Made by a program: the position numbers and the translations under genes. DNA of 58,830 nt, counting the filler, from Dugesia japonica (taxonomy: Eukaryota): assembly GCA_001938525.1 (NCBI GenBank). It is 5 parts of 5 records of this genome, joined end to end, with 100 filler letters (N's around TTAATTAATTAA, not from the genome) between each part and the next. Parts side by side here need not be neighbours in the genome. Positions count along the whole stretch, not along the records: positions 10,205 to 27,971 come from MQRL01595632.1; positions 28,072 to 38,781 come from MQRL01620310.1; 3 more parts are not named here. One strand, given 5' to 3'. Position 1 is the stretch's first letter. The number at the start of each line of letters is the position of its first letter. Positions 1,901-38,781 of this stretch are shown piece by piece. The notes beneath the pieces are model-generated. The model made no database searches. It was given only the letters and a program-made list of their open reading frames with translations, and was not told the origin of the DNA.

Positions 1901-1909
1901 ATTTTTATA

Positions 1910-10160: not shown

Positions 10161-10204
10161 NNNNNNNNNNNNNNNNNNNNNNNNNNNNNNNNNNNNNNNN
10201 NNNN

Positions 10205-16485: not shown

Positions 16486-16626
16486 ACTCCATACTGGCAA
16501 ATAAAATCTTAATAAAAAATTTGTTTTCTCTGTTTTATTGGAGTTAGATAATGATTGTCTCTTTCTGCTTTGCATTGTTTTCAAGTTATACCCCATCTTA
16601 ATTAAAATTCGGTAACTTTACTCTAG

Positions 16627-16944: not shown

Positions 16945-17108
16945 TTAGAACCTCTGATGATTGATAAGAGCACCCAGACGAAATCCAACCCCCATGTTTA
17001 ACTCTATATCTTAAAAAATAAAATTTTGTACATCTTAATCTTGACCTCCGCTTTTACATTATTGAATATATAATAAATTCGATTATAATAGCATTCATTG
17101 TTTCTCTG

Positions 17109-17510: not shown

Positions 17511-17766
17511 AAAATTTCTTTGTAAAATAAAATATATGAAATCAAAATTGTACTTTCTTTCTTTCGTTAATAATGATAGGGAAAATAATGAACCCGAATA
17601 TAAAGGTTTGTAGGTGTGTACCTCCCATTAAGAGAAGGGGTCAACCGCTATAAACTGAAAATCTATCACATGAACGATAGGTCAAATTCTTGAACGGGTC
17701 TCCCTGAGGGCTGTTTTTCTCCAGCCACCAACTTTTTTGTCACTCAACTCAGGTGAGATCCCAACA

Positions 17767-17860
17767 AAAATATAAAATCGAAAATATACCATTTTCTATG
17801 AAAAATGTAAAATTCAAAATTTATGAAAAAACTTTCGAATGCGGCATTTTCTATGAAAAA
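17767..17860 (+). repeat. Continuation of the 35-bp tandem array
   Basis: aaaatcgaaaatataccattttctatgaaaaatgtaaaat, identical to units at 13093-13286. Confidence 0.85.
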
Positions 17861-17977: not shown

Positions 17978-20900
17978 ATGGAACCAACAACATATCAATG
18001 TATCAAATGTAATAAAAGATTTTTAAGTAGATCGGGTTTTGTAACCCAAATGAAAACATGTGGTAAAAAAAATTATAAATTTGTGTGTCGAAAATGTAAG
18101 GATCGATTTAAAACACAACAGGCGCTAAATCATCATTTAAATTTAAATGTTTGTGTGCCACTATATTGCATCGCATGTAAAAAAAAAATTACCAATCAAA
18201 CAAGTGCGAAAAAACACTATCAAAAAAGATCACATAGAATAATTGAAGAGGATCTTACAGTTGATTTATTTGATGAACTTCCTGGAGAAAGAGTAGATGA
18301 AAAAATTATTACAAAATTGTTTATTGGTCCCGATTATGCTGATTTTATTATTTATTATTTAGATGATTGTGGAATTGAATTAAAAAAATTTATTGATGTT
18401 ATAAAAAGTACAGAATTTTATTATCAAGATGAGATTGAAAAAATTATTACAAAATATTTTAAATTTGGAAAAATATTTCATGTTAATGTTTCGGTGGAGA
18501 CAAAATATTCAAAAAATACAAATAATGTCAAAGAGGAAAGAAATTATAGATCTAATTCCTCCAATAAAAGAATAACAGTAGAAGAAAAAATTCCTGAGAT
18601 CACCCAAACACTATTAACAGATTTATTAACACAAATTAATGGGGATAAAAGTGAAAGCAGTTGGACATTAGATTATGTGGTTTATTATAAAATAAGACTT
18701 GGTCTTTATAAATCAAGGGCGGGCGGAACATATGTAAAATTACCATTTATTAAAAGAGGAATTATCAACATTGAAAACAAGGATAACAAATGTTTTCTCT
18801 ATTCAATTCTAGCACAAATATACATATGAACACCCAACACGAGTAAGCCACTATAAAAAACATTTAAATGAATTTGATTTAACAGGTGAAAATTTTCCAG
18901 TGGCAAATAAAAATATAAAAACATTTGAAAAAAATAATAATTGACAAATTAATGTTTTTGAGATTGAAAACCCAAATAAAATTCCAGAATCAACTCACAT
19001 TTCTCATTTTCTTTCTAAACCACCACAAAATGAAAATAAATGTAATTTCATTAAAATAAGATAAGGCTTCGATCAAAACAAAACAGGAAGCCTTATCTTA
19101 TTTTAATGAAATCTCAAATCCGATCAATGGTTAAGTCCAACAATTATTCTCACAATAATTGTAATTATAAATGTAATTTGTTACTTTATAAAAATTTCTT
19201 TGTGCTATGTAAAAACTTAAATACATATATTAGTCGACACGGAATGGAAAATTATTTATGTATAAATTGTATGAATGCATATTCCTCACAAGAAATAGTT
19301 GATAAACATCAAGAAAAGTGTGTTCATCAAAAACCAACAAAAATTAAATTTGAAAAAAAAAGAATTTCATGAGTTTTCAGATTTTAATTTTATGATAAAA
19401 CTTCCATTTGTTGTATATGGTGATTTTGATGCATGGACTGACATAAATAATAATAAGCAAAAACCAATTTCACTCGGCATTTATCTTGTAAGTAATCAAA
19501 AGCAATTAATAAAAACTGAATATATAAAATTCACAGGTGAAAATGTGATAAAAAAATTTTTTAGTATACCTAGAAAATTTAAATGAAAAAGTAGATGAGC
19601 TTATGGGGACAAATTTTATTAAACAACAACCAAGGATTTTAAATGATGAATGTTTTTACTGTAAGAAAACACTTGGGGAAAATCCAGAAGAAGTTTATAA
19701 CTTTTTTAGTGGAGAATTTATTGGACCAGCACATGAATTTTGTAATGAAAAATATAAAAAAATTAATAAAAATTTCTTTGTTCCATTCTACTTTCATAAC
19801 GCATCTGGTTATGATAATAATTTATTTTTTCGAGAACTTTTAGAAAAACACCAAGATGATATAAAAGGAATTATACCACACACAGACGAAGAATATATTT
19901 CATTTTCCTTTAAAAGAATTAGGTTTCTTGATTCATATAGAATGTGCGCCCCAGGTACATCAATTGAAAAAATAGGTGAAATTTTAAATAAAAATGATAA
20001 ATACCCACATTTAAAATTATTCAATTTAACAGCAAAAAAAATTGCATTTCCTTACGAATATTTAAAAGGAAATACTGTGGAAGAAGTTGAGCAATTATTA
20101 AAAAGTAATAAAATACCCACAAAGGAAGATTTTTTCAGCGCATTAAAACAAAAACATATAACTTTCAGAGAATATAAGAAATTTTTAAAAGAATTTTCTT
20201 AATTAAAAAATATGTGGGAACACAAGCTTCATTATTTAAAACTCGACGTTTTAATTCTTGTAGATTTTATGGAAAATCTTCGAGAAATTTGTATGAATTA
20301 TTACGAAATCGATCCATGTTATTGTTTCTCAGCTCCANNNNNNNNNNNNNNNNNNNNNATGAAATTTACAGGAGTAAAGTTAAGATATCCAAAACAAAAA
20401 AGTTATGAGTATTGTTTAAAAAATCAGCGAGGAAGTCGTGGTGGTGTATCCGCTGTTACGGGTGAAAGACAAGTTTTCCCATTTAATAAAAATATACTAA
20501 AGAGAAAATTTACTAAAGCACAAAAAGAAGATCTCTTAAAAATATTATAACGAGGAGAAGAAATTCCAAATAAATTTTTCGAGGAAACATTTTTAAAATA
20601 TTTGGATCAAAATTCTTTATATGCGGCATGTATGACAAAACCTCTTCCTACAGGGGATTATATTGAATGTGAGGATTTAACATATGAAAAAGCAACAGAT
20701 GAGTATAATTTCCTCTATGAGGTGGATTTAGATTATCCTCCTGAAATACACGAGAAAACAAGGTATTTTCCTCTTGCACCAGAGAAGTTAAATATTCAAA
20801 ATGAAATGTTACCTCCATATCAAGCCGATTTTCATAAAAAACTTCCACAGGATAATACAAAATTAACATTAAATCAATTTGATAAAAAAAATTATATAAT

Positions 20901-21904
20901 TCAAGGAAGCACTTTAGATTTATATCTTAAACTTGGAATGTTGTTGAAAAAAATTGTAAATATAAAATTAAAATTAAATATAAAATATAAATATAAAAAT
21001 TGTAAATATATATTGTAAATATAAAGTTCCAACAAGACCATGGTTGAGAGATAATATTCTCTTTAATATTGAAAAAAGAAATGGAGATGAGTTGGGTGAT
21101 TATTTTTTCAAGCTTTTAAATAATTCATTTTATGGAAAAAGTCTTGAAGATGTTTTTAAAAGACGGATTATTGAATTTGTTACATGTAATAAAGATTTTA
21201 AAAGAGTTTCAGCAAAATTATCATTTAGATATTTTAAAATATTTTCAAGAAAATTAGCAGCAATGCACATGCAAAAAAGTAATATTAAATATAATATATT
21301 TCTAATGATTGGTTTTGCTATTTTAGAATATGCGAAAGAGTTAATGTATAATTTTATATATAATCAAATGCAACCAATGATTGGAATAGAAAATTATAAA
21401 ATTCACTACACAGACACCGATTCATTATTTATAGAAATAATCGGGCAAGAAATTTTGGACAAGTTGTCAACATTATTTGGTAAAGAAATCTTTCAAATGA
21501 AAGATGAAATGCCAAACGCTGAAATTACACATGCAAATTTTATAAGGGCAAAATGTTATGCTTTTAATTATGTAGTAAATCTTTTAACTGAGTATTACAA
21601 TAGACACAAGGGTGGATCAAAATCCAACGACATACAAATGAAAGAGTATGACAAAATTTAAGAAAATGCCCAAGAAGTGATTTCTGGAATGAATTATACT
21701 TTAAAATCAAATAAGCATGAAATAGAATTAACTTCTCAAACAAAAATAATAATGAGTGCCTATAATGATAAAGTTTTGATTGAAATAAATGGAATTATAA
21801 CTTGGCCACATGGAAATCAATTTTATTGTGAGAGATGCGAAACATGGCACTTTAGATTAGATTTTTTATGGGAAATTTTAAATTGTCAAAATTGTGAAAA
21901 TTAA
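17978..21904 (+). pseudogene. Protein-primed family B DNA polymerase (element A), disrupted; N-terminal zinc fingers
   Basis: Three C2H2/C2HC fingers, INIENKDNKCFLYSILA, FHNASGYD, RFLDS, FPYEY, YLDQNSLY, KLLNNSFYGK, YTDTDS; split into ~8 pieces by stops, frameshifts, a 131-bp insertion and an AT expansion at ~20955-21020. Confidence 0.95.
19049..19179 (+). repeat. 131-bp hairpin repeat inserted in PolB
   Basis: 26-bp perfect inverted repeat (19045-19070 / 19087-19112); flanked by duplicated ataaatgtaattt; removal restores NENKCNLLLYKN. Confidence 0.85.
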
Positions 21905-22485
21905 ACTTTTAATTTACTTAACTCAAATTTAGGACTTTCAGCTTTAGATTTTAAAATTATTTCTTGAACTTCACGAATCATAGATTTACTTGTAGAAATT
22001 TCCTCATCTGTTAAAATATTATTATTCAAGGCCTTTTGTTGAAATATAAAATGTTTATTTTTAACCGCCTCTAATTTTACAATTAAATTACTATACTTCT
22101 TTTTCTTCTTTTGAATTAAAGATGAATTCAATGCACCGGTAATTGNNNNNNNNNNNNNNNNNNNNNNNNNNNNAGGAAGACCAATTGTAGTAATTCCTAT
22201 TCCTATAGGAGTTGCAAAAATTACACTAACTATGGCCACGCCGGTTCCAATTATAATTTGAGCCACTTTTATTCCATCATCGGTAGCGGCATATTTTGCA
22301 TAAAATTTTCGATAGTGTTTTATTTTATCATTTATAAAATATAAGTCATTTTCAAAATCTTTAATTNNNNNNNNNNNNNNNNNNNNNNNNNNNNNNNNNN
22401 NNNNNNNNNNNNNNNNTTCAAGTGTATTGGAATTTATTTCTTGCTGATAATTTTTTAAATCTGGATATAATGTTTCGTCTGCCAT
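21901..22485 (-). CDS. Polinton membrane protein with N-terminal LYPDL
   Basis: Homologue of 35164-35775; central Gly/Ile-rich hydrophobic hairpin; start placed at MADETLYPDL by alignment. Confidence 0.8.
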   Translation of the reverse strand: MADETLYPDLKNYQQEINSNTLEXXXXXXXXXXXXXXXXXIKDFENDLYFINDKIKHYRKFYAKYAATDDGIKVAQIIIGTGVAIVSVIFATPIGIGITTIGLPXXXXXXXXXXITGALNSSLIQKKKKKYSNLIVKLEAVKNKHFIFQQKALNNNILTDEEISTSKSMIREVQEIILKSKAESPKFELSKLKV

Positions 22486-22509
22486 TTTATATAGAAAATT
22501 TTTCATAGT

Positions 22510-23568
22510 TCATTTAATATTTTTTCTCTTTGATGAAAACTACACCTTTGAATAATAATAAGATTATTAATATAAATATTACCCGGCAAAATTAAATAAA
22601 ATTTTTTATGTCTTCCAACCCACCATTTTTTAAATTTTTACTATTTATTATTAATTTAAATTTTCCAAGTTTTTCAAAAATAAAATCTATAATTTCATCA
22701 GAACCAAAAATATTAACAATAATACTAATTCTACTTATTTTTGTATATCCACCAACAAAAATACACATTGGGGGAATATCATTTATAACTTTAAAATAAA
22801 GTTTAAAAGGATTAGTAAGAAAAAAAATCTTTTTCATTAAGATATTCCCAACCACCCTTTATTGTTACTTTTTCTAAAATTATAAATGATGATGTGAACT
22901 CGGAATAATATGGAAATCTATTTTCATTTTTTCGAAAAAATGCATTTTAAAAATCGCATATCCATCCTCATAAAGACTAATACCTTTATATAGTAAATAA
23001 TTATTAATTTATTCTTTTATTTTTTCTAATAGGTAGAGGGATTTATTTGTTTTATACATTTCTAAATCTTCATGAATTTTTTTACATATCGTGGGTGAAG
23101 AAGATTTTTTATTTTATTTATTTCCACCACCAAAAGAAATAAAAGATCATTTTGTTTTAAAATAGAAACTACTTTTTTTTAAAACTTCAACCTCATCTTT
23201 TATTTGGTAAAAAAANNNNNNNNNNNNNNNNNNNNNNNNNNNNNNNNNNNNNNNNNNNNNNNNNNNNNNNNNNNNNNNNNNNNNNNNNNNAATGGTTTTA
23301 AATTTACTTTCAATTTCTTCATCTTTGGTTTTTAATTTACTTTTTAATTTATTAAAAAATTTTGAATTTGCCACATCACGAATATTTAATTTACTGCATC
23401 AAGTTCATGTTTGGGTGGATCAATAATTTTTAAGGATTTAATAGTGTCACCAGTTTCGTTTACAAATCTTTTTTCATTGCTTGCATCTTGTATTCTTAAT
23501 TTAGCATAAAGAGCATTAATAATTTTTCTTTCATTCCTCGCCTGTGAACTGCGTCCATATGCGTTCAT
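22510..23568 (-). pseudogene. Fibre-like gene of element A, fragmented
   Basis: N-terminus NEKRFVNETGDTIKSLKIIDPPKHELDAVN matches 32843 ORF (NENKYVNETGDIISCLKIIEDPLDLHDAVN); same gene neighbours; stops and frameshifts downstream. Confidence 0.65.
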
Positions 23569-23989
23569 TTATTTCAGAAATAATTTCATCAAAAGATTTT
23601 TCTGGAAAGCTATACAGAAAATAAATACAAAGCACACCACAAATTTTTGTTTCAAAAGATTGAACCTGTTTTTCATTAAATTTTATAATGTGCTTCTCAA
23701 GATCTTCATGAAAAGGTTTTAAACCAAAAGAGTCAAAATAATGTTTATTTTTCGTAGCAACCCAATGAGCTCCTTTTTGATTTGAATTTTGATAATTAAA
23801 AATATAATTCATGTCATTTTCAAAATTTTTAGGTAACTCATTTTTCATGTNNNNNNNNNNNNNNNNNNNNNNNNNNNAAATTTCTAATGGAAATTTTAAA
23901 AAATTTGCAATGGAATAAAGATCAAAATTTTTAGTTGTTGTAATTCCAAATGTATTTAGAAAATCTAAAATTTTGGCATTATAAAGCAT
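23531..23989 (-). CDS. Adenain-like cysteine protease
   Basis: GAHWVA...YFDSFGLKP...QVQ...ICGVLCIYFL gives the His-Asp-Gln-Cys catalytic set. Confidence 0.92.
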   Translation of the reverse strand: MLYNAKILDFLNTFGITTTKNFDLYSIANFLKFPLEIXXXXXXXXXXMKNELPKNFENDMNYIFNYQNSNQKGAHWVATKNKHYFDSFGLKPFHEDLEKHIIKFNEKQVQSFETKICGVLCIYFLYSFPEKSFDEIISEINERIWTQFTGEE

Positions 23990-24625
23990 TTTCTTAAATG
24001 AATAATTAATGATATTGTTTCATTATTAAAACCAATAGGTTTTAAATTTTCATCAACAACTTCAAATCTTAGGGCATCAATTTAACTAGAAGATATTCTT
24101 GAGCAAATAGATCGTGATGGTCTTTCAATAATTTTATATCCAAAGCTTACAGTGTTTGTTGGAAATGAATATAATAAATTAGTTTCTTTATTATTTACAT
24201 AATTTCCCTTAACTAAAAGTCAAGTAATGTTAATTATATTTTTTCATCAGAATAATATTTTCCTGTGGTGTACTCTTTTGGTTTAAAACCTAAAAGTTTA
24301 CAAAAGAAAGATTTTTCATCAAATTTTAAAATTTTATTTTCGGGGATAATAAGTAAAGATTTAGCGGTTGATGTGTCTAAAGTTATTTCCATTCCAAAGT
24401 CTTTTAATTTCTCTGAAATTTCTTCAACCTTATAAGCACCAGGATGAATTTTTCTTTTTTCCCATTAAATGTAAAATATACATCTTCTCGTTCTACATTA
24501 AAAATTGTATTATAAACAGAAAGACAAATTAAAACAACTTCATATTCATCTTTCAAATCTAATGGTCTTTTTAAATTAACTTCTAATTTTGATCCTTTAC
24601 CAGTAACTAAAAACTTATGAGACAA
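23985..24625 (-). pseudogene. Minor capsid protein (penton-like), frameshifted
   Basis: PLDLKDEYEVVLICLSVYNTIFNV, LLYSFPTNTVSFGYKIIERPS, TISLIIHLRK; homologous to 31664-32342. Confidence 0.8.
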
Positions 24626-25452
24626 ATGTTTTTAAAATATTTTTGATATTTTTTATATTTCTCTTTTGAAATTAATTTTTCATTTTTTAATTTTTTACAA
24701 ACCGATTTTATTTCTGGGCCAACATTTTCATGACCAGCTTTTTTAGCAGAAAGTAAAACTACTAATTTTTCAAATAAATCTATTGGGAGTGCAGTACCTT
24801 CAATTGGTTCAATTTTTCTTCTTTTTCTTGCTTGTAATATTTTTTGTGGGAGTTTATCTTTAATCGTTTTATAATATTCACTTTTATAACCATGAGTAAT
24901 TTTTAATTTGTTGTAATAAATATCTACATCTTGCGAGTTTACATCATTAATTTCTTTTACATTTCCATGAATTAAATTCATTACTCCATCTGAATAAGGA
25001 ACAAGTGTATTTGGAATGATAAAAAAATATGGAATTTCATTTTGTTTAACTAAATATATTTCTTTTTCTTTAATTTTTATTTTTATATAAATTTTATCAC
25101 TAACAGTTTCATAATCGAGTTGAGGAAGTGTTGCTGCTGTAAAAAAATTTTTATTTACATTCATTTCTACATCTATTGAAGTAAATGGACTTTTATTTTC
25201 AAATGGATTTGTTGGTAATTTTATTTCTGGATTTGGAATTGGATTTATTGGATTTATTAGTAAACTGATTGGTTGTGCAGATTGTTGTAAAGCGGAAATT
25301 AGTGGAGATTGTGAAAAAGCAAGAGAAGAAAGAAGAATTTTAGATTGAAGAACGTTACTAGAAAAATATTCATTATATTTTTCTTCCTTTTCAATTATTT
25401 CTTTTAATTCTTTAATTCTTGATTCTAATAAAACATGAGTATTAATGACCAT
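24607..25452 (-). CDS. Conserved Polinton protein (probable core protein)
   Basis: 281 aa; C-terminal LFEKLVVLLSAKKAGH...EIKSVCKKLK shared with 30782-31651. Confidence 0.8.
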   Translation of the reverse strand: MVINTHVLLESRIKELKEIIEKEEKYNEYFSSNVLQSKILLSSLAFSQSPLISALQQSAQPISLLINPINPIPNPEIKLPTNPFENKSPFTSIDVEMNVNKNFFTAATLPQLDYETVSDKIYIKIKIKEKEIYLVKQNEIPYFFIIPNTLVPYSDGVMNLIHGNVKEINDVNSQDVDIYYNKLKITHGYKSEYYKTIKDKLPQKILQARKRRKIEPIEGTALPIDLFEKLVVLLSAKKAGHENVGPEIKSVCKKLKNEKLISKEKYKKYQKYFKNICLISF

Positions 25453-26026
25453 TTTTATAAGGTTTTAAATAAATTCCATCACCATCTTCACTATATGATT
25501 TTAAATATAATCCACCACCCTTTTTTAAATGTTTTGATGGTTTTAAATTTTGATTTTTTAAATATTTATAAATCGCTTTACCTTGTATTTCACTTATATA
25601 TTCTACTTCATTTTTATTTGTAGTAGGAATAGTAGGAGTAGTAGGAGTAGTAGAAGCAGTAGGATTTGGGATATTAGTATTAGTATTAGCATTAAGAGCA
25701 AGTTGTTTTTCTCGTTCCAACTTTTCATTTTCAAGTTTCTTGTTATAAGCCTCTCGCGATTTTGTAACGACGGATGCAACTGTACCAGTGACAGCTGCAA
25801 CTTTACCAACACCATCAAGAAAAGAAAGTAATGTAGGTATTAAAGCCAACAGTGGAATAAAAGCACCTTCTTTTTCTTGATGTTTTTTAATTTCTTCTTT
25901 TGCTTTTTTACCAATCCAATAATTTTTACCATTAATTTTAACTGTTTTACTAAGATTGGAATTTACTAATTTTCTTAATTCTTCTTCTGTAATATTCTCA
26001 CCCATTTTTCTAAGAAAAAAGATCAT
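25442..26026 (-). CDS. Adenovirus pX-like core protein precursor
   Basis: KEGAFIPLLALIPTLL...; GGGLYLKSY and GDGIYLKPY repeats; PT-rich linker; homologue of 30299-30772. Confidence 0.8.
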   Translation of the reverse strand: MIFFLRKMGENITEEELRKLVNSNLSKTVKINGKNYWIGKKAKEEIKKHQEKEGAFIPLLALIPTLLSFLDGVGKVAAVTGTVASVVTKSREAYNKKLENEKLEREKQLALNANTNTNIPNPTASTTPTTPTIPTTNKNEVEYISEIQGKAIYKYLKNQNLKPSKHLKKGGGLYLKSYSEDGDGIYLKPYKNGH

Positions 26027-26762
26027 TTGTCATTTCATTTGTTAATTGATTTAAATATAAATATGTGTATGGTCGTTTCCAAGTGTGATTTGTTTCATAG
26101 TCATAATCATTTTTATTATTAAATGCAGAAAAAAATAAATCACTATAAAAACTATCACGATCTCTTTTATTTAATCTAAAAAATATAAAACAGTTGCGGT
26201 TATTTCTTATTGAATTTTTATCAAGGTGAAAATATGTTTGGGAAATATAAATCACATTACAATTTGAATGACGACCTCGAGTGAAATAACTTTTTTGGGT
26301 TTCTTGCTTTTCATTTACCACATCATCAAAAATTACAAGATTTTTTTTATTCCTTTTTAATTTATCACAGCGTGTGATGTCTAATGGATTACTACTTAGA
26401 ATTACTTCTATTGATTGTGGTTTTTTTATTACAAATTTCTTTTGAATGAAAAAATCTACAATCTCTTTTGGAGTGTCACAGGAATTAGGAGCGATCGCTT
26501 GCTTCTTAAACATTAATAAAATTTCTTCTTTTGTTAATCCATTTAAAAATCCCTCTTTTAATAATTGCACTTCAAATTGTTTAATTGTAGTTGAATAAAT
26601 TAATAGATTATTATAATCAAGAAAACCGGGTGTAAGTAACATTTGTGTCAAGAGAAAATTTTTTCCACATCCAGAAGACCCAATTATCAACAATCGAAAA
26701 TTACTAGGAAAAAGTTTATTTTTAAAAATTACCTGGTCTTTTTTCCAAACAAAATTACTCAT
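26010..26762 (-). CDS. A32/FtsK-like DNA packaging ATPase
   Basis: GSSGCGKN, LVIFDD, FTRGRH, YISQ; start set at MSNFVW by alignment with element B (the upstream ATG overlaps the integrase). Confidence 0.93.
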   Translation of the reverse strand: MSNFVWKKDQVIFKNKLFPSNFRLLIIGSSGCGKNFLLTQMLLTPGFLDYNNLLIYSTTIKQFEVQLLKEGFLNGLTKEEILLMFKKQAIAPNSCDTPKEIVDFFIQKKFVIKKPQSIEVILSSNPLDITRCDKLKRNKKNLVIFDDVVNEKQETQKSYFTRGRHSNCNVIYISQTYFHLDKNSIRNNRNCFIFFRLNKRDRDSFYSDLFFSAFNNKNDYDYETNHTWKRPYTYLYLNQLTNEMTNDLFS

Positions 26763-26769
26763 CCTTTTT

Positions 26770-27971: not shown

Positions 27972-28015
27972 NNNNNNNNNNNNNNNNNNNNNNNNNNNNN
28001 NNNNNNNNNNNNNNN

Positions 28016-28027
28016 TTAATTAATTAA
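28016..28027. other. Artificial contig linker
   Basis: N-TTAATTAATTAA-N separating elements A and B. Confidence 0.95.
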
Positions 28028-28072
28028 NNNNNNNNNNNNNNNNNNNNNNNNNNNNNNNNNNNNNNNNNNNNT

Positions 28073-30286
28073 GATTTAATAATTGAAGATCCAGTTATAG
28101 ATCATAATCATTTTAATGGTGAATTTAGAGGTTATTCATGTAACACCTGTAATGTTAATGATCTTTCTATTAAAAATTTATTTATACCATTTTATTTTCA
28201 TAATGCATCAGGTTATGACAATCATTTATTCTTTAGAGAATTAATAACTAAATTTCCAAATAAAATAAAAAAGATAATACCACACTCATCTGATAATTAT
28301 ATTTCATTTCAATTTAAAAATATTAAATTCTTAGACTCAGCTAGACTACTTCCATTTACATCTGTAGAAGTAATGGGTAAATTATTAACATCTTCTAATA
28401 ATTATCCAGTATTAAAATCTTTCAATCTAAAACCTAAAAAAGTAATATTTCCATATGAATATGTAAAAGGTAATACTATCACTGAAGTAACTCAATTATT
28501 ACAATCAAGTCGAATACCAAAAAGAAAAGATTTCTTTAATACATTAACTCAAAAAGAAATATCTAAAACTGAATATTTTGAATTTTTAATTGATCTAACT
28601 AAATTTGAAAATTTATGGAATTACATGTTACACTATATGAAATTAGATGTTATAATTTTAACTGACTTCTTAGAAAATTTTAGAAATTCATGTTTAAATA
28701 ATATCCTAAAACTAGATCCATGTTATTCTTATTCAGCTCCAGGTTATGCATGGGAAACTGGAATGTTAAATGCAAATGTAAAACTTAAATATGCTAAATC
28801 TGAAACTTATAATATTTTCTTAACACTAGAAGAAGGAATNCGTGGTGGTTATTCTGGTGTATGTGGTGAACGTCAAGTATTTTCACATAATAAAATTAAA
28901 AATCCACATTCAAGACAATTGAACAAATCACAATATGAAGATCTAATTAAAATGATGAACACTCATGAATTTATTCCAGAGGATTATATTAATAATTTAA
29001 TGGAAGATACATTTATAAAATATTTAGATGAAAATTCTTTATATGCATCATGTATGACAAAACCATTACCAACAGGTGAAATGATTGAATCCAATGGTTT
29101 AATATATGAACCATCAAATGATAATAATAATTTTATATATGAAGTTGACTTAGAATATCCTAAAGAAATACATGATAAAACTAAATACTTTCCATTAGCA
29201 CCAGACAGAATAAATATTAGACCTGAGATGTTAAGTAAATACCAATTAGGTTTTAATAAGAAAATAACAAAAGATAATACTAAATTAACACTTAATCAAT
29301 ATGACAAGAAAAATTATGTATGTCTAGGTTCAACATTAGATCTATATTTAAAACTTGGTATGAAACTAATAAAAGTTCATAAGAAAATTAAAATGAATAC
29401 ATCATCATGGTTTAAAAATCATGTACACAAATTAATAACCTTAAGAAAAGAATCTAAAAGAATAAATGATGTATTTGGTGATTACATTTATAAACTTATG
29501 TTAAATGCATTCTATGGTAAAACACTTGAAAATATTAGAAATAGATGTAACATTGAAATTGTAGATAATGACAAAGATTATCAAAAGTTTGCGGCTAAAG
29601 TTAATTTTAAATCAATAAAAATCTTTACATTAAATGATTCAAATGAAGGTCATATAGCAGCAATGAATATGATAAAAGGAAAACTAAAATATAACAAATT
29701 TCCATATATAGGTTTCACTATACTTGAACATGCAAAATATGTAATGTATGATTTTATATACAATCAAATGAATCCATTAATATCTCAAGATAATTATAAA
29801 ATTCACTACAGCGACACGGATTCCATCTTTGTAGAAATAAAACATAAAGACAATCTTGATAAATTAAATACTTTACTTGGAAATGATTTATTTCAAATGA
29901 AAGATGAATTACCTAATAATGAAATAAATCAATGTAATTTTATAAAAGCAAAATCTTATGCTTACAGTTATGATACCCAAGGTTATGATTCTAGAAATAA
30001 AGGTGTAAAGAAAAATAATAAATTATTAATGAAAGATTTTAATTCAGTATTAGATGATTCTAAGAAAATAATTCATGGTACAAACTATTCATTAAAATCT
30101 GATTGTCATAATATTGAATTAGTAGAACAAAAGAAAATAGCTCTAATGGCATATGATGATAAGCGAATTATAGAAGATAACGGAACGGTAACATGGCCAC
30201 ATGGTAATCAATATTTTTGTGAAAGATGTAACATTTGGCATTTAAGATTAGACTTGATAAATAGGCAAAACCTAAATTGTTTATAA
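28073..30286 (+). CDS. Protein-primed PolB (element B), 5'-truncated
   Basis: Frame open from the contig start: VIDHNHFNGEFRGYSCNTCN, FHNASGYD, KFLDS, YLDENSLY, KLMLNAFYGK, YSDTDS, YDDKR. Confidence 0.97.
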   Translation, partial: DLIIEDPVIDHNHFNGEFRGYSCNTCNVNDLSIKNLFIPFYFHNASGYDNHLFFRELITKFPNKIKKIIPHSSDNYISFQFKNIKFLDSARLLPFTSVEVMGKLLTSSNNYPVLKSFNLKPKKVIFPYEYVKGNTITEVTQLLQSSRIPKRKDFFNTLTQKEISKTEYFEFLIDLTKFENLWNYMLHYMKLDVIILTDFLENFRNSCLNNILKLDPCYSYSAPGYAWETGMLNANVKLKYAKSETYNIFLTLEEGXRGGYSGVCGERQVFSHNKIKNPHSRQLNKSQYEDLIKMMNTHEFIPEDYINNLMEDTFIKYLDENSLYASCMTKPLPTGEMIESNGLIYEPSNDNNNFIYEVDLEYPKEIHDKTKYFPLAPDRINIRPEMLSKYQLGFNKKITKDNTKLTLNQYDKKNYVCLGSTLDLYLKLGMKLIKVHKKIKMNTSSWFKNHVHKLITLRKESKRINDVFGDYIYKLMLNAFYGKTLENIRNRCNIEIVDNDKDYQKFAAKVNFKSIKIFTLNDSNEGHIAAMNMIKGKLKYNKFPYIGFTILEHAKYVMYDFIYNQMNPLISQDNYKIHYSDTDSIFVEIKHKDNLDKLNTLLGNDLFQMKDELPNNEINQCNFIKAKSYAYSYDTQGYDSRNKGVKKNNKLLMKDFNSVLDDSKKIIHGTNYSLKSDCHNIELVEQKKIALMAYDDKRIIEDNGTVTWPHGNQYFCERCNIWHLRLDLINRQNLNCL

Positions 30287-30298
30287 TTAAAATAGCGA

Positions 30299-30772
30299 AT
30301 GAATCCAACAGAAGAAGAATTAGAATCTATAGTTAATTCTAAAAAATGTAAATCTGTAAAGATCAATGGTAAAAATTATTATATTTCTAAAAAAGTTAAA
30401 GATGAACTTAAAAAACAATCGCATAAAGGTGGATTTGCATTTCTAGCAGCAATACCAGCAATTATAACTGCATTAGCAGGAACTGCAGGTATTGCATCTG
30501 GTATTGCAAGTACAGTTGCAAATTCTAGAGATGTAATTAAAAAACAAAAAGAGATTGATATATTAAGTGCTAAACCTGAAACTAAAAATGAAGGTAAAGG
30601 TTTATATCTTAATCCTTATCAAGGTAATGCATTACACAAATATTTTAAAAATATTAATCCAGAGATGAAAGATCTAACAAGAAACTTTAAAGATGGAATA
30701 CAAATAACTAAAAGTGGAAATGGTTTATATTTAAATCCATATAATCCTAATAAAGAAAATAGAGAAGAATAG
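30299..30772 (+). CDS. Adenovirus pX-like core protein precursor
   Basis: HKGGFAFLAAIPAIITALAGTAGIAS resembles the pX C-terminal GG|ILPLLIPLIAAAIGA.PGIAS segment; GxGLYLNPY twice. Confidence 0.82.
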   Translation: MNPTEEELESIVNSKKCKSVKINGKNYYISKKVKDELKKQSHKGGFAFLAAIPAIITALAGTAGIASGIASTVANSRDVIKKQKEIDILSAKPETKNEGKGLYLNPYQGNALHKYFKNINPEMKDLTRNFKDGIQITKSGNGLYLNPYNPNKENREE

Positions 30773-30781
30773 CCTACAGAC

Positions 30782-31651
30782 ATGAACACTGAACAAGTTA
30801 ATAAAAGAATTGAAGAATTAAAAGCTTTAATTAAAGCTCAAGAAAAATATAATAACTTTTTCTGTGGAAATGTAATTGATTCACGAAATATGCAAAGTAC
30901 TTTATCTGTANNNCAAAAACCAACAATTACAGCTATAGAAAAAAGTCAAATTATTAAACCAATAGAAAAATCATTAGATTCAACTAATCTAACAAAATTC
31001 TTATCTAATGAAAATGTAATACCTTTTATTCCAGAATATTCAATTGAAGATGTTAATGCAACTGCAGATTTAACTCAATCAATTATTCCTAAGTTTTCTG
31101 AATTAAAAATTACTGGTGTTGATATCATAAAAAGTTTTATGGAAATAAGTTTAAAAGATAATAATATTTATTTATTTTTTCAGGATGATATTAATTACTT
31201 TTTATTTAAATCTGAAGTTATTCCATATTCTGATGGAATATTTAGAATGATAATAGGAAATTTAGATGGAAAAGAAACACCTGAAGAAATTGAGATATAT
31301 TTAAAATTTATATCTCCAATACCAACTAATTGTAGTTATGTTACTAAATTAAAAAATAAATTTAGAAAAGTAGAAATTATAAAACCTAAAAGAACAACAA
31401 CAAGAAAAGTTAAACCTAAACTAGAATTTGAAACAGAAAAATCAGAATCAGAATATTTAACAGAAAAAGAAGGACAATCACTCAATCCTATTGCATTATT
31501 TGAAAAGTTAACATTATTAATTTCAGCTGTAAAATCTGGACATGATAATCTTAATGAAGATATTAAAACAGTATGTAAAAAACTAAAGACTCTAGCTTTA
31601 ATATCTAACATAATTTATGATAAATATAAAGCTAAATATTTTCGTAAATAA
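30782..31651 (+). CDS. Conserved Polinton protein (probable core protein)
   Basis: 289 aa; homologous to 24607-25452 at N-terminus, PYSDG and C-terminus. Confidence 0.8.
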   Translation: MNTEQVNKRIEELKALIKAQEKYNNFFCGNVIDSRNMQSTLSVXQKPTITAIEKSQIIKPIEKSLDSTNLTKFLSNENVIPFIPEYSIEDVNATADLTQSIIPKFSELKITGVDIIKSFMEISLKDNNIYLFFQDDINYFLFKSEVIPYSDGIFRMIIGNLDGKETPEEIEIYLKFISPIPTNCSYVTKLKNKFRKVEIIKPKRTTTRKVKPKLEFETEKSESEYLTEKEGQSLNPIALFEKLTLLISAVKSGHDNLNEDIKTVCKKLKTLALISNIIYDKYKAKYFRK

Positions 31652-31663
31652 ATATCTAAGGAC

Positions 31664-32342
31664 ATGTCTCATCAATTCTTAATAGTTGGTAAAGAACATG
31701 AATTAATTATGGATTTAAAATATCCTATAGAATTAGATTCAGAATATGAACTTGGATTNNNNNNNNNNNNNNNNNNNNNNNNNNNNNNNNNNNNNNNNNN
31801 NNNNNNNNNNNNNNNNNNNNNNNNNNNNNNNNNNNNNNNNNNNNNNNNNNNNNNNAATAAAAGAAATATCAGATAAATTAAAAACTAAACATGAAATAGA
31901 AGTCATTCCAGATACATCAACAATAAAGTGTAATTTAATAATCCTTAAAGAAGATTTAACTTTTGATGATAAATCTTTCTTCTATAAGATCTTAGGTTTT
32001 AAACCTGGAACATATAAAGTAGGAAAGTATTATTCAGATAATAAAATTNNNNNNTCAAATATTAACATGATAAATGTAACATGTAATATTGTTAAAGGTA
32101 ATTATGTTAAATCTGATAAAAATGAAACAGAACAAATAAATCTTTTATATTCATTTCCTATAAATTCAGTTCCATTTGGTTATAAAATATTAGAAAGACC
32201 ATCTACTTGTATTTATTCTAAAATTAATACAAATTACATATCAAGATTGAAATTTAATGTCATGGATGAAAACTTTAACACTATAGATTTTAAAAATGAA
32301 ACTATTTCAATATTAGTACATCTAAGAAAATATAGACATTAG
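31664..32342 (+). CDS. Minor capsid protein (penton-like), spans an N gap
   Basis: YPIELDSEYELG...ILGF...INVTCNIVKG...LYSFP...GYKILERP...DENFNTIDFKNETISILVHLRK. Confidence 0.85.
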
Positions 32343-32345
32343 AAT

Positions 32346-32398
32346 GGTGCCTTTTATATTTCCAAGGCACTGGTGCCTTTCTAAGGTCCGGTGCCTTT
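32346..32398 (+). promoter_or_regulatory. Triple GGTGCCTTT motif with an inverted copy
   Basis: GGTGCCTTT at 32346, 32372, 32390 and AAGGCAC at 32364 in the penton-protease spacer. Function inferred only. Confidence 0.4.
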
Positions 32399-32439
32399 TT
32401 AAATATTATTATTTTAGATTTTACATAATAAAAATAGCA

Positions 32440-32850
32440 ATGTATAATTTATTAGACTTTTTAAAAACATTTGGAATTAACACAACTACAAATTTTGATT
32501 TATATTCAATTGCTAACTTTTTAGAATTACCTTTAGATATTTATATGAAAAATGAAATCCCTGACAAATTAGATAATAATATTATTTTTAATTATCAAAA
32601 TGAAAATCAAAATGGAACACATTGGACATGTTACAGTAATAATTATTATTTTGATTCTTTTGGTTTAAAACCTTTAGATAAAATATCTGAACATGTAAAA
32701 CTTTATAATGAAATTCAAGTTCAACATTATGGAACTAAAATATGTGGTGTATTATGTATTTACTTTTTATATTCTATTCAACATGAAACATTTGATAATA
32801 TTATATCTGAGATGTTAACACTTTATAATTCATTATTAGAAAATGAATAA
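32440..32850 (+). CDS. Adenain-like cysteine protease
   Basis: GTHWTC...YFDSFGLKP...QVQ...ICGVLCIYFL; start at MYNLLDF by alignment to element A. Confidence 0.92.
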   Translation: MYNLLDFLKTFGINTTTNFDLYSIANFLELPLDIYMKNEIPDKLDNNIIFNYQNENQNGTHWTCYSNNYYFDSFGLKPLDKISEHVKLYNEIQVQHYGTKICGVLCIYFLYSIQHETFDNIISEMLTLYNSLLENE

Positions 32851-35160
32851 GTTTGGTGAAAGTTTAAATATATTAAATACTACACAAATATTAAAAAAGG
32901 TAGATGCTAAATTTAGAACTACAGATGCAACAAATGAAAATAAATATGTAAATGAAACAGGTGACATAATTTCATGTTTAAAAATAATTGAAGATCCTTT
33001 AGACCTCCATGATGCAGTTAATTTAAAATATATTAAAACTCTAGAAGATAAATTAAAGACTCATGAATTAGTTTTTACAAAATTACTAAAACTAGACAAA
33101 ACTGAAATTAACAAATTATATTTAACATATAAAGCTGATCGTTTAAATAATCCAGTGTTAAATGATAAAATTAAAAATCTTACAAATAAATGTTCAGTAA
33201 CGAAATATACAGATATTACAACTGAAATCTCAAGATTAATATCTGAAATATTTCCATTAAAAAAATGTGATCTAATTGATAAATTTAAAACTATAACTCG
33301 AAATGATCTAAATAAAAAATTAACTAAAGATGTTAACATGTTACATGATAAACTTTATAATTTACATGATAATATAACTAAGAAAACATTTGATGAAAAT
33401 ATGAATCTTATTAATATACTTAAATCAGAAGTGGAAAAGTTTAATCTAAATATGAATATTATAAAAAATGAAATTAAAAAAATAAAACCTAAATTACACA
33501 AAATACAAATTAAGAGAATTAATGAATTATATGAAAACTATAAAGAAACACTTGATATAAAAAATATAAAATATTTCATTGATAATTATTTACAGTATCA
33601 TAATAATGATAATTTTTTTGAATATGATTATTATATATTTGAATTTGTTTATAGGGGGGATTTTATTCCATATATTAATATTAATGATAAAACTACTTAT
33701 ATAGAGAATATAGAATTTGAAAGAGGTAATTTTTTTTATAAAAATTCAGATTTTTTTTATAATGAAAAAAACTTTAGTATTTTTTTATATACAAAGATAA
33801 ATGATGAAGTTTTTATAAAGTTATATGTAACTCTTTCTTATAACTTTTCTATTAAAATTAATAATATCAGAAAGACATTTAAAAAAGATAGTAATGAAAA
33901 TAAAGTCATTAATGATAGCTCTGAATTCACGAAAGATAAAAATATAAATTATATTGAAATTGTTTTCTTTAAAGGAACTGGATTTAGGAATTCAATTATT
34001 ATTCCAAAAAAAGATTATTATTTTAGTAAAATGAATAATTTGTTTAAAGATATAAAAAAAGAACTTCATAAATTAGATTTTGATAAATTTAATGGTCTAT
34101 TAAAAAAATATAAAGAAAAATTTGAATATGATACATTTAAAGCTTTTTTTAAATTGTGTGATATTTTTTTTTTTATAAAAAAAATGAAAACCCCGATATA
34201 TTATTTAAAATTAAATGGTATCAAGAAGCTTTTCTTGTAATTCCTTATTTTAGTTATAATGATAAATATATTTACAAATTTGATTTAAAAAGAAAGAAAA
34301 GTAATGTTATAAATATTGCTTTACATACCATAATTAAAAGAAGAGTCAGTATAAATATAGATGGCGCCTGTAGGATAGAAAAATTTACATATACCATTAA
34401 AATAAATATTATTGCTGTAGCATTTTTATGTATTCCAAAAAAAATCACTATGGCTGACTATGTAGATACTATATATAACACTTATATAAATAATGGTAAT
34501 AAATTTAACATTTATAGAGAAACTGAAGAAAAAAATATAAAATATATTGAAATGGTTTTTCCAGAAGAAGTTGAGATAATAAATTTAAATATTAAATTTG
34601 CTGAATATAAAATTCCAGATGAATTAAATAAAGAATATGAAAGAATAAAACCAAAACTTCACAGGATTCAAATAATAAGAATTGATCTTTTAATAAAAAC
34701 TTATTCTGAAAATGAGAATGAGTTCGTTCTTAAAAATATAAAAGATTTAATTGATAATTACTTACCATTTAAAAATGAAAAAGTTTCTAATTTGTTTCAT
34801 CTAATTATCACAGATGAAAATCTTCCGTGTTATTATATTAATGAAAAAGTTGAAAGTATAAATTTTAAAAGAAATGGTGTAATAAATAAAGATTATATAC
34901 TTCCATATTTTTATCTTAAAGAACCATTTATTATTTCTATAAAAACATATTTACCATATAAAAATATATATATTTTAATAACATGTCACACTGGTGATTT
35001 TAAATATAGTATTAAAATAAATAACACTTTACATGAATATGTTGATAAAACATCTCAGTTTTTAAAATCATTTAGTGGAAATATAAACTTTATAGAAATA
35101 ACATTTCCTAAAGGAATTCTTCTTTATAAAATTTTAATTTTAGATAAAATTTCTACATAG
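32843..35160 (+). CDS. Fibre-like protein with three repeated domains; one -1 frameshift at ~34170
   Basis: ORFs 32843-34240 and 34450-35160 join because the second frame is open back to ~34175; repeated KPKLH.IQI.RI...IDNYL...SIKINN...NINYIEI.F.KG domains. Confidence 0.7.
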
Positions 35161-35163
35161 AAA

Positions 35164-35775
35164 ATGGACACTGAAAGTATTTATCCTAATTTGTCCAATG
35201 ATAGAAATGAAAACTTTACAATATTAGATTTAAAAAATAAACTTGCATTATCTAGAATTAGAGATTTTGAAAATGACTTGTACTTTATTAAAGATAAAAT
35301 TAAACATTATAAGAAAATACATAAAAGATGGAACATGATAGATACAAATATAAAATATACACAAATAGGTGTTAGTGTTGGAATTGGAATTACAGGAATT
35401 ATATTAATTACTCCAGTTGGAATTGCAATAACGGCTGTTGGTATACCAGTGATTACAGGTGCAATTTCCATGTTACCTGTAATTGGAACATTAAATACTT
35501 CACTTGTTAAATCTAGAAAAGAAAAGTATGAAAAGTTAATTAAGAAATTAGAATGTGTTAAAAATAAATTATTCTTATTTCAACAGAAAGCAGTACACGA
35601 TGAAATATTAACTGATGAAGAATTAATGATCAGTAAAAATATGGTTAATGAAGTTCATGAGTTGATATCTGGACATAAAAAAGAAAAGTCTAAATCTGAT
35701 GAAAAAGATTTTAAATTATTAATTGAAAATCAAAATAGAATAATTAATGAAATGCGCCTTAAGCTTGGAATGTAA
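35164..35775 (+). CDS. Polinton membrane protein with N-terminal IYPNL
   Basis: 203 aa; long hydrophobic hairpin; C-terminal QQKAVHDEILTDEE shared with element A. Confidence 0.85.
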   Translation: MDTESIYPNLSNDRNENFTILDLKNKLALSRIRDFENDLYFIKDKIKHYKKIHKRWNMIDTNIKYTQIGVSVGIGITGIILITPVGIAITAVGIPVITGAISMLPVIGTLNTSLVKSRKEKYEKLIKKLECVKNKLFLFQQKAVHDEILTDEELMISKNMVNEVHELISGHKKEKSKSDEKDFKLLIENQNRIINEMRLKLGM

Positions 35776-35799
35776 TTACAAATGAAATTAAAATTAGGT

Positions 35800-35863
35800 A
35801 TGTAAAATATTAGATGTAAAATATTAGATGTAAAATGTTAGATGTAAAATGTTCGCATGCGAA
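35800..35863 (+). repeat. Short tandem repeat (atgtaaaatattag x4) and palindrome ttcgcatgcgaa
   Basis: Seen directly in the intergenic spacer. Confidence 0.75.
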
Positions 35864-35906
35864 CAAAAAAAGGTTAATAGGATTAAATTAATTCTTTATA
35901 AAAAAG

Positions 35907-36488
35907 ATGTCATCAACAAGTGAAAGTAGTGAAACTGATTATGATGAAAAAAAAGAAAATTTAAGAAATAATAAATCATATTATAATTTATTTAATCAAG
36001 TTAAAAAACTATTTATAACAAAAGAAAAAAAAGATGAAATTTTACATATTAAATTAAATAATGGAAATTTAATATTTAAAAGTAAACCATTAAAAGAAGA
36101 TTTGTTATATTTAAAACAAATAGGAAATGAAAATAAAAAAGAAAGAAAAAATAAAAAAGAAATTAGAAAAAAAATACGTAAGTTAAAAAGAGAGAATAAA
36201 GATATTAAATTTATTACAAAAGTTTTTTATCCTAATTCTGAAGGCTTAAGAAATTATTTTGAAAATGAAAAATGTAATCATAATACTAATAATTTATTTA
36301 AAATAAATATAGGTGAAACATTTTTCATTTGTTGTAAAAATTGTAAACTTAATTTTGAAAATATATTACGTGAAAAATTTCCTAAACTTTATATTAGTCT
36401 TAATGAATATGTTAAAAATAAAGAAATAGAAATGAAGATTTTAAATAATGAAATACTTTGTATATTTGATGAAGAAACATCTGAAGAT

Positions 36489-36521
<33 letters not shown>

Positions 36522-37322
36522 CAAAATAAAGAAATACAAAATAAAATACAAATTAAAATACAAAATAAAGAAATAGAAAATAAAATACAAAATAAAGAAA
36601 TAGAAAATAAAATAGAAAATAATAAAATACAAAATAAAGAAGAAAATAATACATCTGAAGATGAAATATCTGAAATTAAATTAGATTCTATAAAAGAAAC
36701 AACTGATTATGATACATCTCAAGATAAAAATGTTTCAACTGAAGATGAAATATATGCTGATAAAATATTAATTAAATATAAACGTTTAATAAAATATTCT
36801 CGAACAGATGAAAAATTTTATATTAAATTTTATAAATCACTAGTAAATAATATTAGTAAGGAATCATTTAATATTTATGATTCATTAATGATACCAGAAC
36901 AAAAACTTGAAGGTGAAGATGAAACAGTAGAAAATTTAACTATAAATATTAAATGTTGGTATAATAATTTAAATATAGGAAAAAGAATATCATTAATAAG
37001 TATTTATAAATTAGGTTATTTATTTGAAATATTAAAAACTAAATATTCTTGTAATTTTGATATGTTAGAAGATTTACATAAAATTGGAATTAACTATAAA
37101 ATTAATTATATTAACAAAATAATAAAATTTTATAAATTTGCTTATCAATATCCAGAATTATTAAAATGTAATTGGTCATTTAGAACAATTGAACAAGAAA
37201 TAAAAAGAATTAAAATATACTTCATTGAAAATATATATGAACAACTAAAATTAAATCAAACGTTAGAAGAATATAATAATAATAGTATGTACACCATTGG
37301 TAAACCGGGGATCTTACACTAG
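35907..37322 (+). CDS. Accessory Lys/Glu/Asn-rich protein, element B only
   Basis: Intact 471-aa ORF; CNH...CCKNCK, NKEIENKIQ repeats, TSEDEI repeats, helical C-terminal domain. Confidence 0.8.
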
Positions 37323-37361
37323 GGGCATAAAGTTAAAATAGACCAACGGATTAACATAAAG

Positions 37362-38177
37362 TTAAAATAGATCATCTAACATCTCATCAGTTTCTTTATT
37401 TAAATAAAAATAGTTATATTTAGTTTTCCAATGTAAATTAACTTCATAATCATAATCTAACTTGTTATTAAAAATATTAGAAAATAATTCATGATAAACA
37501 TTATCTCTATCAGTTTTATTTAATTTAAAGAAAATGTAACAATTAGAATTATTTCTTATAGAGTTTTTATCGAGATGGTAATATGTTTGTGAAATATAAA
37601 TTACATTACAATTTGAATGTCTTCCCCGGGTGAAATAACTTTTTTGTACTTCTTGATTCTTTTCATTAACTACATCATCAAATATTATTAAATTCTTTTT
37701 NNNNNNNNNNNNNNNNNNNNNNNNNNNNNNNNNNNNNNNNNNNNNNNNNNTAATTAAGTTTTTCTTTTGTTTTGAAAGTTTATCACAAGAAACTATTTCA
37801 TTAGGTTTATTACTTAATGTAACAAAAATACTTATAGATTTTTTAGTTAATAATTTTTTATGTAAGAAATATTTAATAACTTCATTTGGAGATGTTAAAT
37901 GTTTAGGTATAATATTTTGCTTGTCAAACATTAAAGTAATTTCTTCTTTAGATAATCCATTTTCAAAACCTAAGTATAACAATTGAATTTCAAATTGAGA
38001 TATTGTTGTAGAGTAAATTATTAAATTGTCATAATCTAAAAATTCAGGTGTCAATAACATTTTCATTAATAATACATTTTTACCACAACCAGAAGATCCA
38101 ATCATTAATAGTCTAAAATTATTAGGTAATACTTTATTGTTAAAATGTGTAATGTTATTGTTCCAAATGTACGTCAT
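37362..38177 (-). CDS. A32/FtsK-like DNA packaging ATPase
   Basis: GSSGCGKN, LIIFDD, FTRGRH, YISQ. Confidence 0.94.
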   Translation of the reverse strand: MTYIWNNNITHFNNKVLPNNFRLLMIGSSGCGKNVLLMKMLLTPEFLDYDNLIIYSTTISQFEIQLLYLGFENGLSKEEITLMFDKQNIIPKHLTSPNEVIKYFLHKKLLTKKSISIFVTLSNKPNEIVSCDKLSKQKKNLIXXXXXXXXXXXXXXXXXKKNLIIFDDVVNEKNQEVQKSYFTRGRHSNCNVIYISQTYYHLDKNSIRNNSNCYIFFKLNKTDRDNVYHELFSNIFNNKLDYDYEVNLHWKTKYNYFYLNKETDEMLDDLF

Positions 38178-38206
38178 TTTGTCCGTAGGTCAAGCTTTGC
38201 TATTTT

Positions 38207-38392
38207 CTATAAGTTAAATTTTATCATTAAATCATTTATTAATTTTGTTAAAGGATAATCATTATTTAATTGATAACTTATTTCTTCATAATAATTTTCA
38301 ATATGATAAAATACAATTTTAAAATCATTTTCAATATCATGAATAACTAAATCTTTTTGAGTTTTATTAGTAGTATCAAAAAATGCATACAT
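38207..38392 (-). CDS. Small hypothetical protein
   Basis: 61 aa, packed co-directionally between integrase and ATPase. Confidence 0.5.
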   Translation of the reverse strand: MYAFFDTTNKTQKDLVIHDIENDFKIVFYHIENYYEEISYQLNNDYPLTKLINDLMIKFNL

Positions 38393-38645
38393 TGTGATTT
38401 CTTTTTTCCATATCCATTATTTTAGTCTTTCTTTCATATTCATCATCAGTAATAGCAATTATTTCTGATAATTCTTTAATGTAATTATCTACTGTTATTA
38501 AATAATTTATTCTTTTTGTTAACTTATCTAGTTTTTGTTGTACTGTTTTTATTTCTGATAATTCTTTAATGAAATTATCTAATATTTGTTGTACTGTTTT
38601 TATTTCTTTACATAAATCTTTTATTTCCATATCTCTAGTAGTCAT
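38376..38645 (-). CDS. Small coiled-coil protein
   Basis: 89 aa with repeated IKEL.EIKTVQQ.LD units. Confidence 0.6.
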   Translation of the reverse strand: MTTRDMEIKDLCKEIKTVQQILDNFIKELSEIKTVQQKLDKLTKRINYLITVDNYIKELSEIIAITDDEYERKTKIMDMEKRNHNVCIF

Positions 38646-38665
38646 TTCTTATATTTTAATTTTGA

Positions 38666-38781
38666 TCATAAAGATGTTTTTTGTAATTCATTAGAATAAA
38701 ATCTACAAAGTATTTTGTTACCGTTAAGATTTGATATTCTAAATGTTATAGGTGATTCATGAAATATTTCAGTAATTATAT
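38666..38781 (-). CDS. Integrase C-terminus (element B), truncated
   Basis: IITEIFHESPITFRISNLNGNKILCRFYSNELQKTSL*, matching the element A integrase tail. Confidence 0.85.

Follow-up and report, generated by a model that had tools for sequence, protein, structure and literature searches.

Two truncated Polinton-like elements of a distinct lineage in Dugesia japonica, and family-wide late-domain-like motifs in their hairpin protein

The window analysed here, a stretch of 58,830 nucleotides (filler included) from Dugesia japonica (GCA_001938525.1), has ∼25% GC, ATT microsatellites, and many N runs, and it contains two gene-dense Polinton-like elements, namely element A at 17978-27971 (record MQRL01595632.1) and element B at 28072-38781 (record MQRL01620310.1). 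The window is made up of separate contigs joined by four 100-base spacers, N44-TTAATTAATTAA-N44, at 10105, 27972, 38782, and 47280. The two elements noted by a previous reading made from the sequence alone (the sequence-only reading) are thus both there, but such a spacer links A to B, and their adjacency is an artefact of joining. The long "inverted repeats" flanking A and B were rejected as spacer artefacts as well. Element A ends at its contig end, inside the 5′ region of a phospholipase A2 (PLA2) gene, and element B ends inside its protein-primed DNA polymerase (PolB) gene on one side and 37 codons into its integrase gene on the other (spacer at 38782). The recovered length is thus ∼10-11 kb per element, as compared with 15-20 kb for a typical Polinton. 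The genes and features, including open reading frames (ORFs), are as follows.

17978-21904, plus strand: A protein-primed PolB in ∼8 broken frames, with N-terminal C2H2 fingers and a Cys/His tail (PF03175)
19040-19171, no strand: very high-copy host repeat within A PolB (depth spike in bin 18816-19169)
21901-22506, minus strand: A YPxL membrane-hairpin protein, with LYPDL
23389-23568, minus strand: A fibre-like gene, N-terminus; the 880 bases downstream (22510-23388) have no gene call
23531-23989, minus strand: A adenain-type cysteine protease (PF00770, weak match, E 0.012)
23990-24631, minus strand: A candidate penton (minor capsid) gene, in pieces
24607-25452, minus strand: A conserved ORF, 281 aa
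25442-26026, minus strand: A pX-like ORF, in which a GG/GA site precedes a hydrophobic segment
26010-26828, minus strand: A A32-like packaging ATPase, Walker A GSSGCGKN (PF04665, E 8e-11)
26770-27971, minus strand: A parvovirus-type PLA2 fused in frame to an rve integrase (PF08398, E 1e-9; PF00665, E 5e-9)
27972-28071, no strand: artificial, non-biological spacer between A and B
28072-30286, plus strand: B PolB, 5′ part missing, 737 open codons, Cys/His tail (PF03175, E 2e-13)
30299-30772, plus strand: B pX-like ORF
30782-31651, plus strand: B conserved ORF, 289 aa
31655-32342, plus strand: B candidate penton gene, with assembly N gaps
32440-32850, plus strand: B adenain-type protease, with H, D, Q, and C motifs present
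32843-35160, plus strand: B fibre-like region, which spans overlapping frames of 465 and 332 codons, contains a duplicated domain, and varies among family copies
35164-35775, plus strand: B YPxL membrane-hairpin protein, with IYPNL
35907-37322, plus strand: B low-complexity accessory ORF, 471 aa, rare among family copies
37362-38177, minus strand: B A32-like ATPase, GSSGCGKN (PF04665), with an N gap at 37701-37750
38207-38648, minus strand: B two small ORFs, 69 and 90 codons
38665-38781, minus strand: B integrase, last 37 codons, the remainder cut by the spacer at 38782

Nine genes are common to A and B, in agreement with the earlier count of eight or more: PolB, the pX-like ORF, the 281/289-aa ORF, penton, protease, the fibre-like N-terminus, the YPxL protein, ATPase, and the integrase C-terminus. 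Their amino acid identity over aligned residues ranges from 39 to 67%, being highest for the ATPase (67%) and the protease (65%), followed by the pieces of PolB (48-63%) and penton (47-58%), the integrase end (58% over 36 aa), the YPxL protein (49%), the fibre N-terminus (48% over 60 aa), the pX-like ORF (44%), and the 281/289-aa ORF (39%). Across the common genes, the uncorrected proportion of nonsynonymous differences (pN, 0.30) is lower than that of synonymous differences (pS, 0.56), which points to purifying selection since the two elements split. The six-gene block from pX through 281/289, penton, protease, and fibre to YPxL, which lies between PolB and the ATPase, is inverted between A and B. 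Both elements contain (i) the GSSGCGKN Walker A motif, (ii) a PolB tail with CERC-x2-WH, and (iii) a YPxL motif close to the N-terminus of the hairpin protein. PLA2, which the sequence-only reading had counted in the gene set seen twice, holds for A, where it is fused to the integrase; it was not seen in B, which is cut before that position.

Individual gene calls differ in what they rest on. The B protease is similar to the proteases of two other loci, L002 (E 4e-12) and L014 (E 7e-12). The pX label is our assumption, made from motif resemblance, and the B pX-like ORF showed non-significant similarity by BLAST to its L002 look-alike (E ∼5). Atlas matches of the B fibre-like ORF (best 0.82; tail-fibre clusters 0.76-0.77) are leads only, and a single-sequence model of the B 471-aa ORF was uninformative, with a predicted local distance difference test (pLDDT) score of 40. 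A Pfam search of the PolB N-terminus, with no profile-profile comparison made, gave no match to OTU, which is an adintovirus feature.

The sequence-only reading had proposed a distinct lineage, and phylogenetic analyses agree with it. In an ATPase tree of A, B, and 35 of 42 matches (short ones omitted), A and B group with eight proteins that have a GKN Walker A and with one truncated protein, in a clade whose Shimodaira-Hasegawa-like approximate likelihood ratio test (SH-aLRT) support is 98; branch lengths are 0.50 for A and 0.19 for B. The eight GKN proteins are also ranks 1-8 of the search (48-58% identity), and the Walker A could be read in 34 of the 42 matches, the rest of these 34 having GKT (24) or GKS (2). 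A PolB search returned 729 matches, the best seven of which are 34-45% identical, and in a tree of 44 rows A and B form a pair (98) nested in a clade of 10 rows (100) that excludes the insect and mollusc-linked rows. The A/B lineage is thus distinct and also occurs outside this genome. The PolB tail was readable in 42 of 132 relatives; CxxC is present in one of these 42, unlike the A/B tail, and the Cys/His tail was seen only in A and B. Among the traits that had been called unusual, GKN therefore stands as a clade marker and the PolB tail as seen only in A and B among the readable tails, whereas the YPxL protein is widespread, with 151 relatives at E ≤0.001 among 50%-identity representatives. 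Since GKN is retained across the clade, Walker B and RGRH are invariant, and GKN loops also occur in viral helicase-type proteins (alignment of PMC3671162), the GKN ATPase, as far as these alignments indicate, need not be inactive.

In other collections, viral contigs scanned for the PolB, ATPase, and PLA2-integrase sequences yielded no locus, ATPase searches of genome contigs (by alignment) and of phages gave no match, an Rfam scan gave 0 matches, and PHROGs gave one weak match among 13 proteins. A metagenome scan gave 12 loci, with best segments 34-42% identical, and GKN was absent from the ATPase frames examined in them. The PLA2-integrase fusion was considered as a novelty and rejected, since 69 of 120 listed matches carry it. 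At two soil-type metagenome loci (L004:1012-2652 and L007:1986-3707), a PLA2 stop is directly followed by an in-frame integrase with no Met at its start, an arrangement that hints at stop read-through yielding a PLA2-integrase fusion.

Element DNA is present in many sequencing runs of one organism from eight studies; no RNA runs were listed among the runs containing it. Run X1 gave 31,144 contig records on A and 41,836 on B, of which about one-tenth are at least 99% alike and most are 85-95% alike, and exact-match contigs had depths of 4-17 in runs of two studies. A and B are members of large, diverged chromosomal repeat families, depth not being read here as copy number. Summed depth on B is 22,000-72,000 for the core genes, 373-1,390 for the distal fibre region, and 54-377 over most of the 471-aa ORF, and the low value for the distal fibre relative to the core supports the variable fibre of the sequence-only reading.

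The two copies differ in their state of decay. Element A has a broken PolB, penton, and integrase, its PLA2-integrase frame being broken near the third catalytic residue and its 5′ end lost at the contig end, and a host repeat lies in its PolB. Element B is less decayed, with mostly unbroken frames, yet at some sites (e.g. 29497) almost none of its relatives share its sequence. The earlier description of B as near-intact and perhaps recent thus holds for its frames and for an age younger than that of A, recency being relative to A only. In RNA run X19, 1,891 reads fell on A, nearly all of them at the host repeat, and runs X18 and X22 gave 160 and 290 reads on B, 97-99% of which continue into unrelated sequence; no transcription of A (X19) or B (X18, X22) was found in the 6-25% of each run that was read. 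Polintons in planarians are described as piRNA-silenced (PMC8532177). The same hairpin-type host repeat is found at 19040-19171, 2266-2514, 49283-49481, 56531-56623, and 58353-58392, and is present in RNA reads.

We consider it probable that A and B are two truncated chromosomal copies of related Polinton/Maverick families, located on separate contigs and with no transcripts found in the three RNA runs. Weighing against this are (i) the lack of a visible terminal inverted repeat pair or 6-bp target duplication in either contig-broken element; (ii) the fact that a double-jelly-roll major capsid gene was not seen for the A/B lineage, both stretches being cut at the integrase; (iii) a penton assignment that depends on a three-sequence profile; and (iv) the 6-25% scope of the RNA analysis. 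Integrase-mediated insertion, together with protein-primed copying, is the likely means by which these families spread. By analogy with the family, active ancestors would have used the ATPase to package DNA, the protease for particle maturation, and the fibre for attachment, and would have crossed the endosomal membrane with the help of PLA2 and the pX-like peptide.

A and B were compared with known systems. The names Maverick, Polinton, and adintovirus are used interchangeably in 10.64898/2026.06.19.733378, which gives virions as not observed. PMC8502044 describes PLA2, pX-like domains, fibre, adenain, and SLATT as adintovirus genes. A and B resemble these elements (Polintoviricetes) in the protein-primed PolB, rve integrase, A32 ATPase, adenain protease, penton, PLA2 (in A), pX-like domain, and fibre-like gene (PMC4028283 and PMC8502044). 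They differ from them by the GKN Walker A and the PolB Cys/His tail, with the capsid gene and terminal repeats lying outside the view. In alpha-module adintoviruses, PLA2 is joined to a C-terminal pX-like domain (PLA2X; PMC8502044), whereas A has its PLA2 fused to the integrase and its pX-like sequence in an ORF of its own. Judged by eye, Polinton-1_HM (Hydra) and Polinton-1_CB/-2_CB (Caenorhabditis) encode ATPases with the A/B-type motifs G-x-S-G-C-G-K, IFDD, and RGRH-x-N, but with GKT in place of GKN (alignment of PMC3671162).

Alternatively, A and B could be nothing more than copies of a planarian Polinton family that has already been catalogued, four Schmidtea Polintons being in Repbase (PMC4028283). 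The Schmidtea mediterranea elements belong to the same broad PolB class as A and B, and the host group is probably the same. However, in the 2013 alignment of PMC3671162, the ATPases of Polinton1_SM, Polinton-1_SM, and Polinton-2_SM (GPSxxGKT, no RGRH) are by eye unlike those of A and B, and POLB-1_SM and POLB-2_SM differ throughout from the A/B PolB. A high-identity match to a described family of the same architecture, which the sequence-only reading had named as refuting its proposal, was thus not found by eye in three of the four Schmidtea families, Polinton2_SM and later Repbase entries being outside the comparison; a literature search on Polinton/Maverick in Schmidtea or planarians likewise found no description of the A/B lineage. 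We therefore regard membership in a catalogued family as unlikely, and A and B as probably an uncatalogued sub-branch of a known kind of element.

The sequence-only reading had credited the elements with a full gene set, but neither stretch contains a major capsid gene. The largest gaps without a gene call, 880 bases in A and 132 bases in B, are too small for a capsid gene of ∼1.2 kb, which leaves no room for one inside the recovered stretches. A Pfam capsid scan of 34 + 92 frames was blank, which is a weak test because the same Pfam models missed 3/3 presumed capsid ORFs at loci L013 and L014; we take these three ORFs to be capsid genes from their size, position, and resemblance, and not from fold. 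A profile of the three found no counterpart among the 1,067 frames of the window (best E 0.1), whereas a penton profile built likewise from three sequences placed the A penton at the top of these frames (E 7e-4) and the B penton next (E 2e-3). Furthermore, the scarcity of the B 471-aa ORF among family copies argues against its being the capsid. The major capsid gene is therefore outside both recovered stretches, and probably located beyond the integrase breaks, because both contigs break at the integrase and because, among 72 Repbase Polintons, 59 retain a capsid gene, whether intact or split (PMC4028283). Locus L014 has a similar inventory together with a capsid-sized ORF, and also a PLA2-integrase fusion. 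Both L013 and L014 are contigs filed under bacterial metagenome-assembled genomes, yet with Polinton gene sets, and probably stem from eukaryotic contamination; in L013, the ORF at 9527-10936 is a protease-integrase fusion.

A more demanding interpretation, favoured by the sequence-only reading, is that of a real, active virus with an extracellular stage, of which B is a recent integrant. The largely open frames of B and its shorter ATPase branch (0.19, versus 0.50 for A), the depth pattern of a variable fibre, and the family-wide enrichment of late-domain-like motifs described below would fit such a virus. On the other hand, no capsid gene is in view in the recovered stretches, no transcripts were found for either element in the three RNA runs, B is unlike nearly all of its relatives at sites such as 29497, and both elements are high-copy chromosomal repeats, so that we judge an active virus to be very unlikely. 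Least likely of all is a capsid-less lineage that keeps its penton, protease, and GKN ATPase and moves intracellularly or in borrowed capsids, for although the whole PolB-to-integrase span was recovered with no room for a capsid gene, the penton profile succeeded where the capsid profile did not, and the capsid cell for Polinton2_SM is blank in Table S1 of PMC4028283, both contigs stop at the integrase with ∼10-11 kb of a typical 15-20 kb recovered, the penton, protease, and ATPase are still conserved, and GKN is natural in viral helicase-type P-loops (PMC3671162).

The best lead of the analysis concerns the whole family of the YPxL protein, and not A and B in particular. We counted motifs in the first 60 residues of 131 of the 150 listed relatives of the YPxL protein, namely those with at least 160 residues. 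YPxL is present in 52 of the 131 (shuffle mean 1.2, maximum 6), YPx[LIVM] in 95 (shuffle mean 3.1), and P[TS]AP in 21 (shuffle mean 0.06), with both motif kinds in 16, and YPxL never occurs deeper than the first 60 residues. Because the query itself had YPxL, the sample is biased towards YP, but not towards P[TS]AP, which B lacks. A model of the B protein (pLDDT 88) shows a long hairpin of helices whose hydrophobic turn is at ∼67-110; the N-terminus is unstructured, and the motif lies inside the non-helical first 15 residues. By fold, the model comes closest to uncharacterised iridovirus proteins (E 5e-5 to 8e-4), whereas viral SLATT proteins matched weakly in the Foldseek search (E 0.03 or worse), a PDB fold search gave no match at E ≤0.001, and SLATT was not among 25 of the 35 Pfam families listed for 111 members.

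YPXnL and P(T/S)AP are the late domains that bind ALIX and TSG101, respectively, and both motif types are also used by tiger frog virus, an iridovirus, whose late-domain proteins resemble the present family in this respect (PMC4880917). The N-terminal enrichment of YPxL and P[TS]AP suggests an exit assisted by the endosomal sorting complexes required for transport (ESCRT), in which the hairpin protein would recruit ALIX/ESCRT and particles would leave wrapped in membrane. The putative ESCRT recruiter of the sequence-only reading thus appears better supported than before, by the family-wide enrichment and the exposed N-terminus of the model, but as a trait of the family rather than of the A/B lineage. 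The hairpin with its hydrophobic turn also resembles the SLATT-like two-transmembrane proteins of adintoviruses and polinton-like viruses (PMC8502044 and PMC12220804), and for the SLATT proteins of the latter a competing function has been put forward, namely the formation of pores for entry (PMC12220804). The general proposal that animal Polintons carry a dedicated exit hairpin with retrovirus-type ALIX/TSG101 late domains, and that their particles leave wrapped in host membrane, is one that we advance tentatively and hold to be rather doubtful. A literature search on Polinton and ESCRT, judged from its listings, found nothing on topic, and three other sources (10.1101/2023.08.22.554363, 10.1101/2025.02.07.637071, and PMC6431247) gave general background only.

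For the way in which animal Polintons would leave cells, the family-wide late-domain signal provides a concrete hypothesis, ESCRT exit. If true, a membrane-wrapped exit could explain why naked particles go unseen. The high-copy GKN lineage, in what is probably a model flatworm, would be a testing ground for it. Independently of this, A and B add to the Polintons a high-copy sub-branch that looks uncatalogued and can be recognised conveniently by its GKN Walker A.

Several minor features lie on the contig of A and on other contigs of the window. Near the start of the A contig, an AGTAG-type motif resembling a Polinton terminus (10543-10558, minus strand) is, by its orientation, the end of another element and not the left end of A, and chance is not negligible at three mismatches. 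A tandem array of 35-36-base units at 12804-13303 matches (89%) the sequence at 17762-17822, just upstream of A PolB; these are possibly sub-terminal repeats of a related element. Also upstream of A PolB, at 15609-17510, are GC-richer small ORFs, for which Pfam gave nothing above noise; in one of them an acidic tail comes after an LxCxE-like motif, and this ORF sits where, we presume, adintovirus "Oncoid" genes lie. On the contig after B, a degraded remnant with zinc knuckles and RT/RNase H-like frames (38882-40600, minus strand) is one that we take from its motifs to be Ty3/Gypsy-like, and an isolated fragment at 1868-2122 (minus strand) resembles what we presume to be a DEAH-box splicing helicase.

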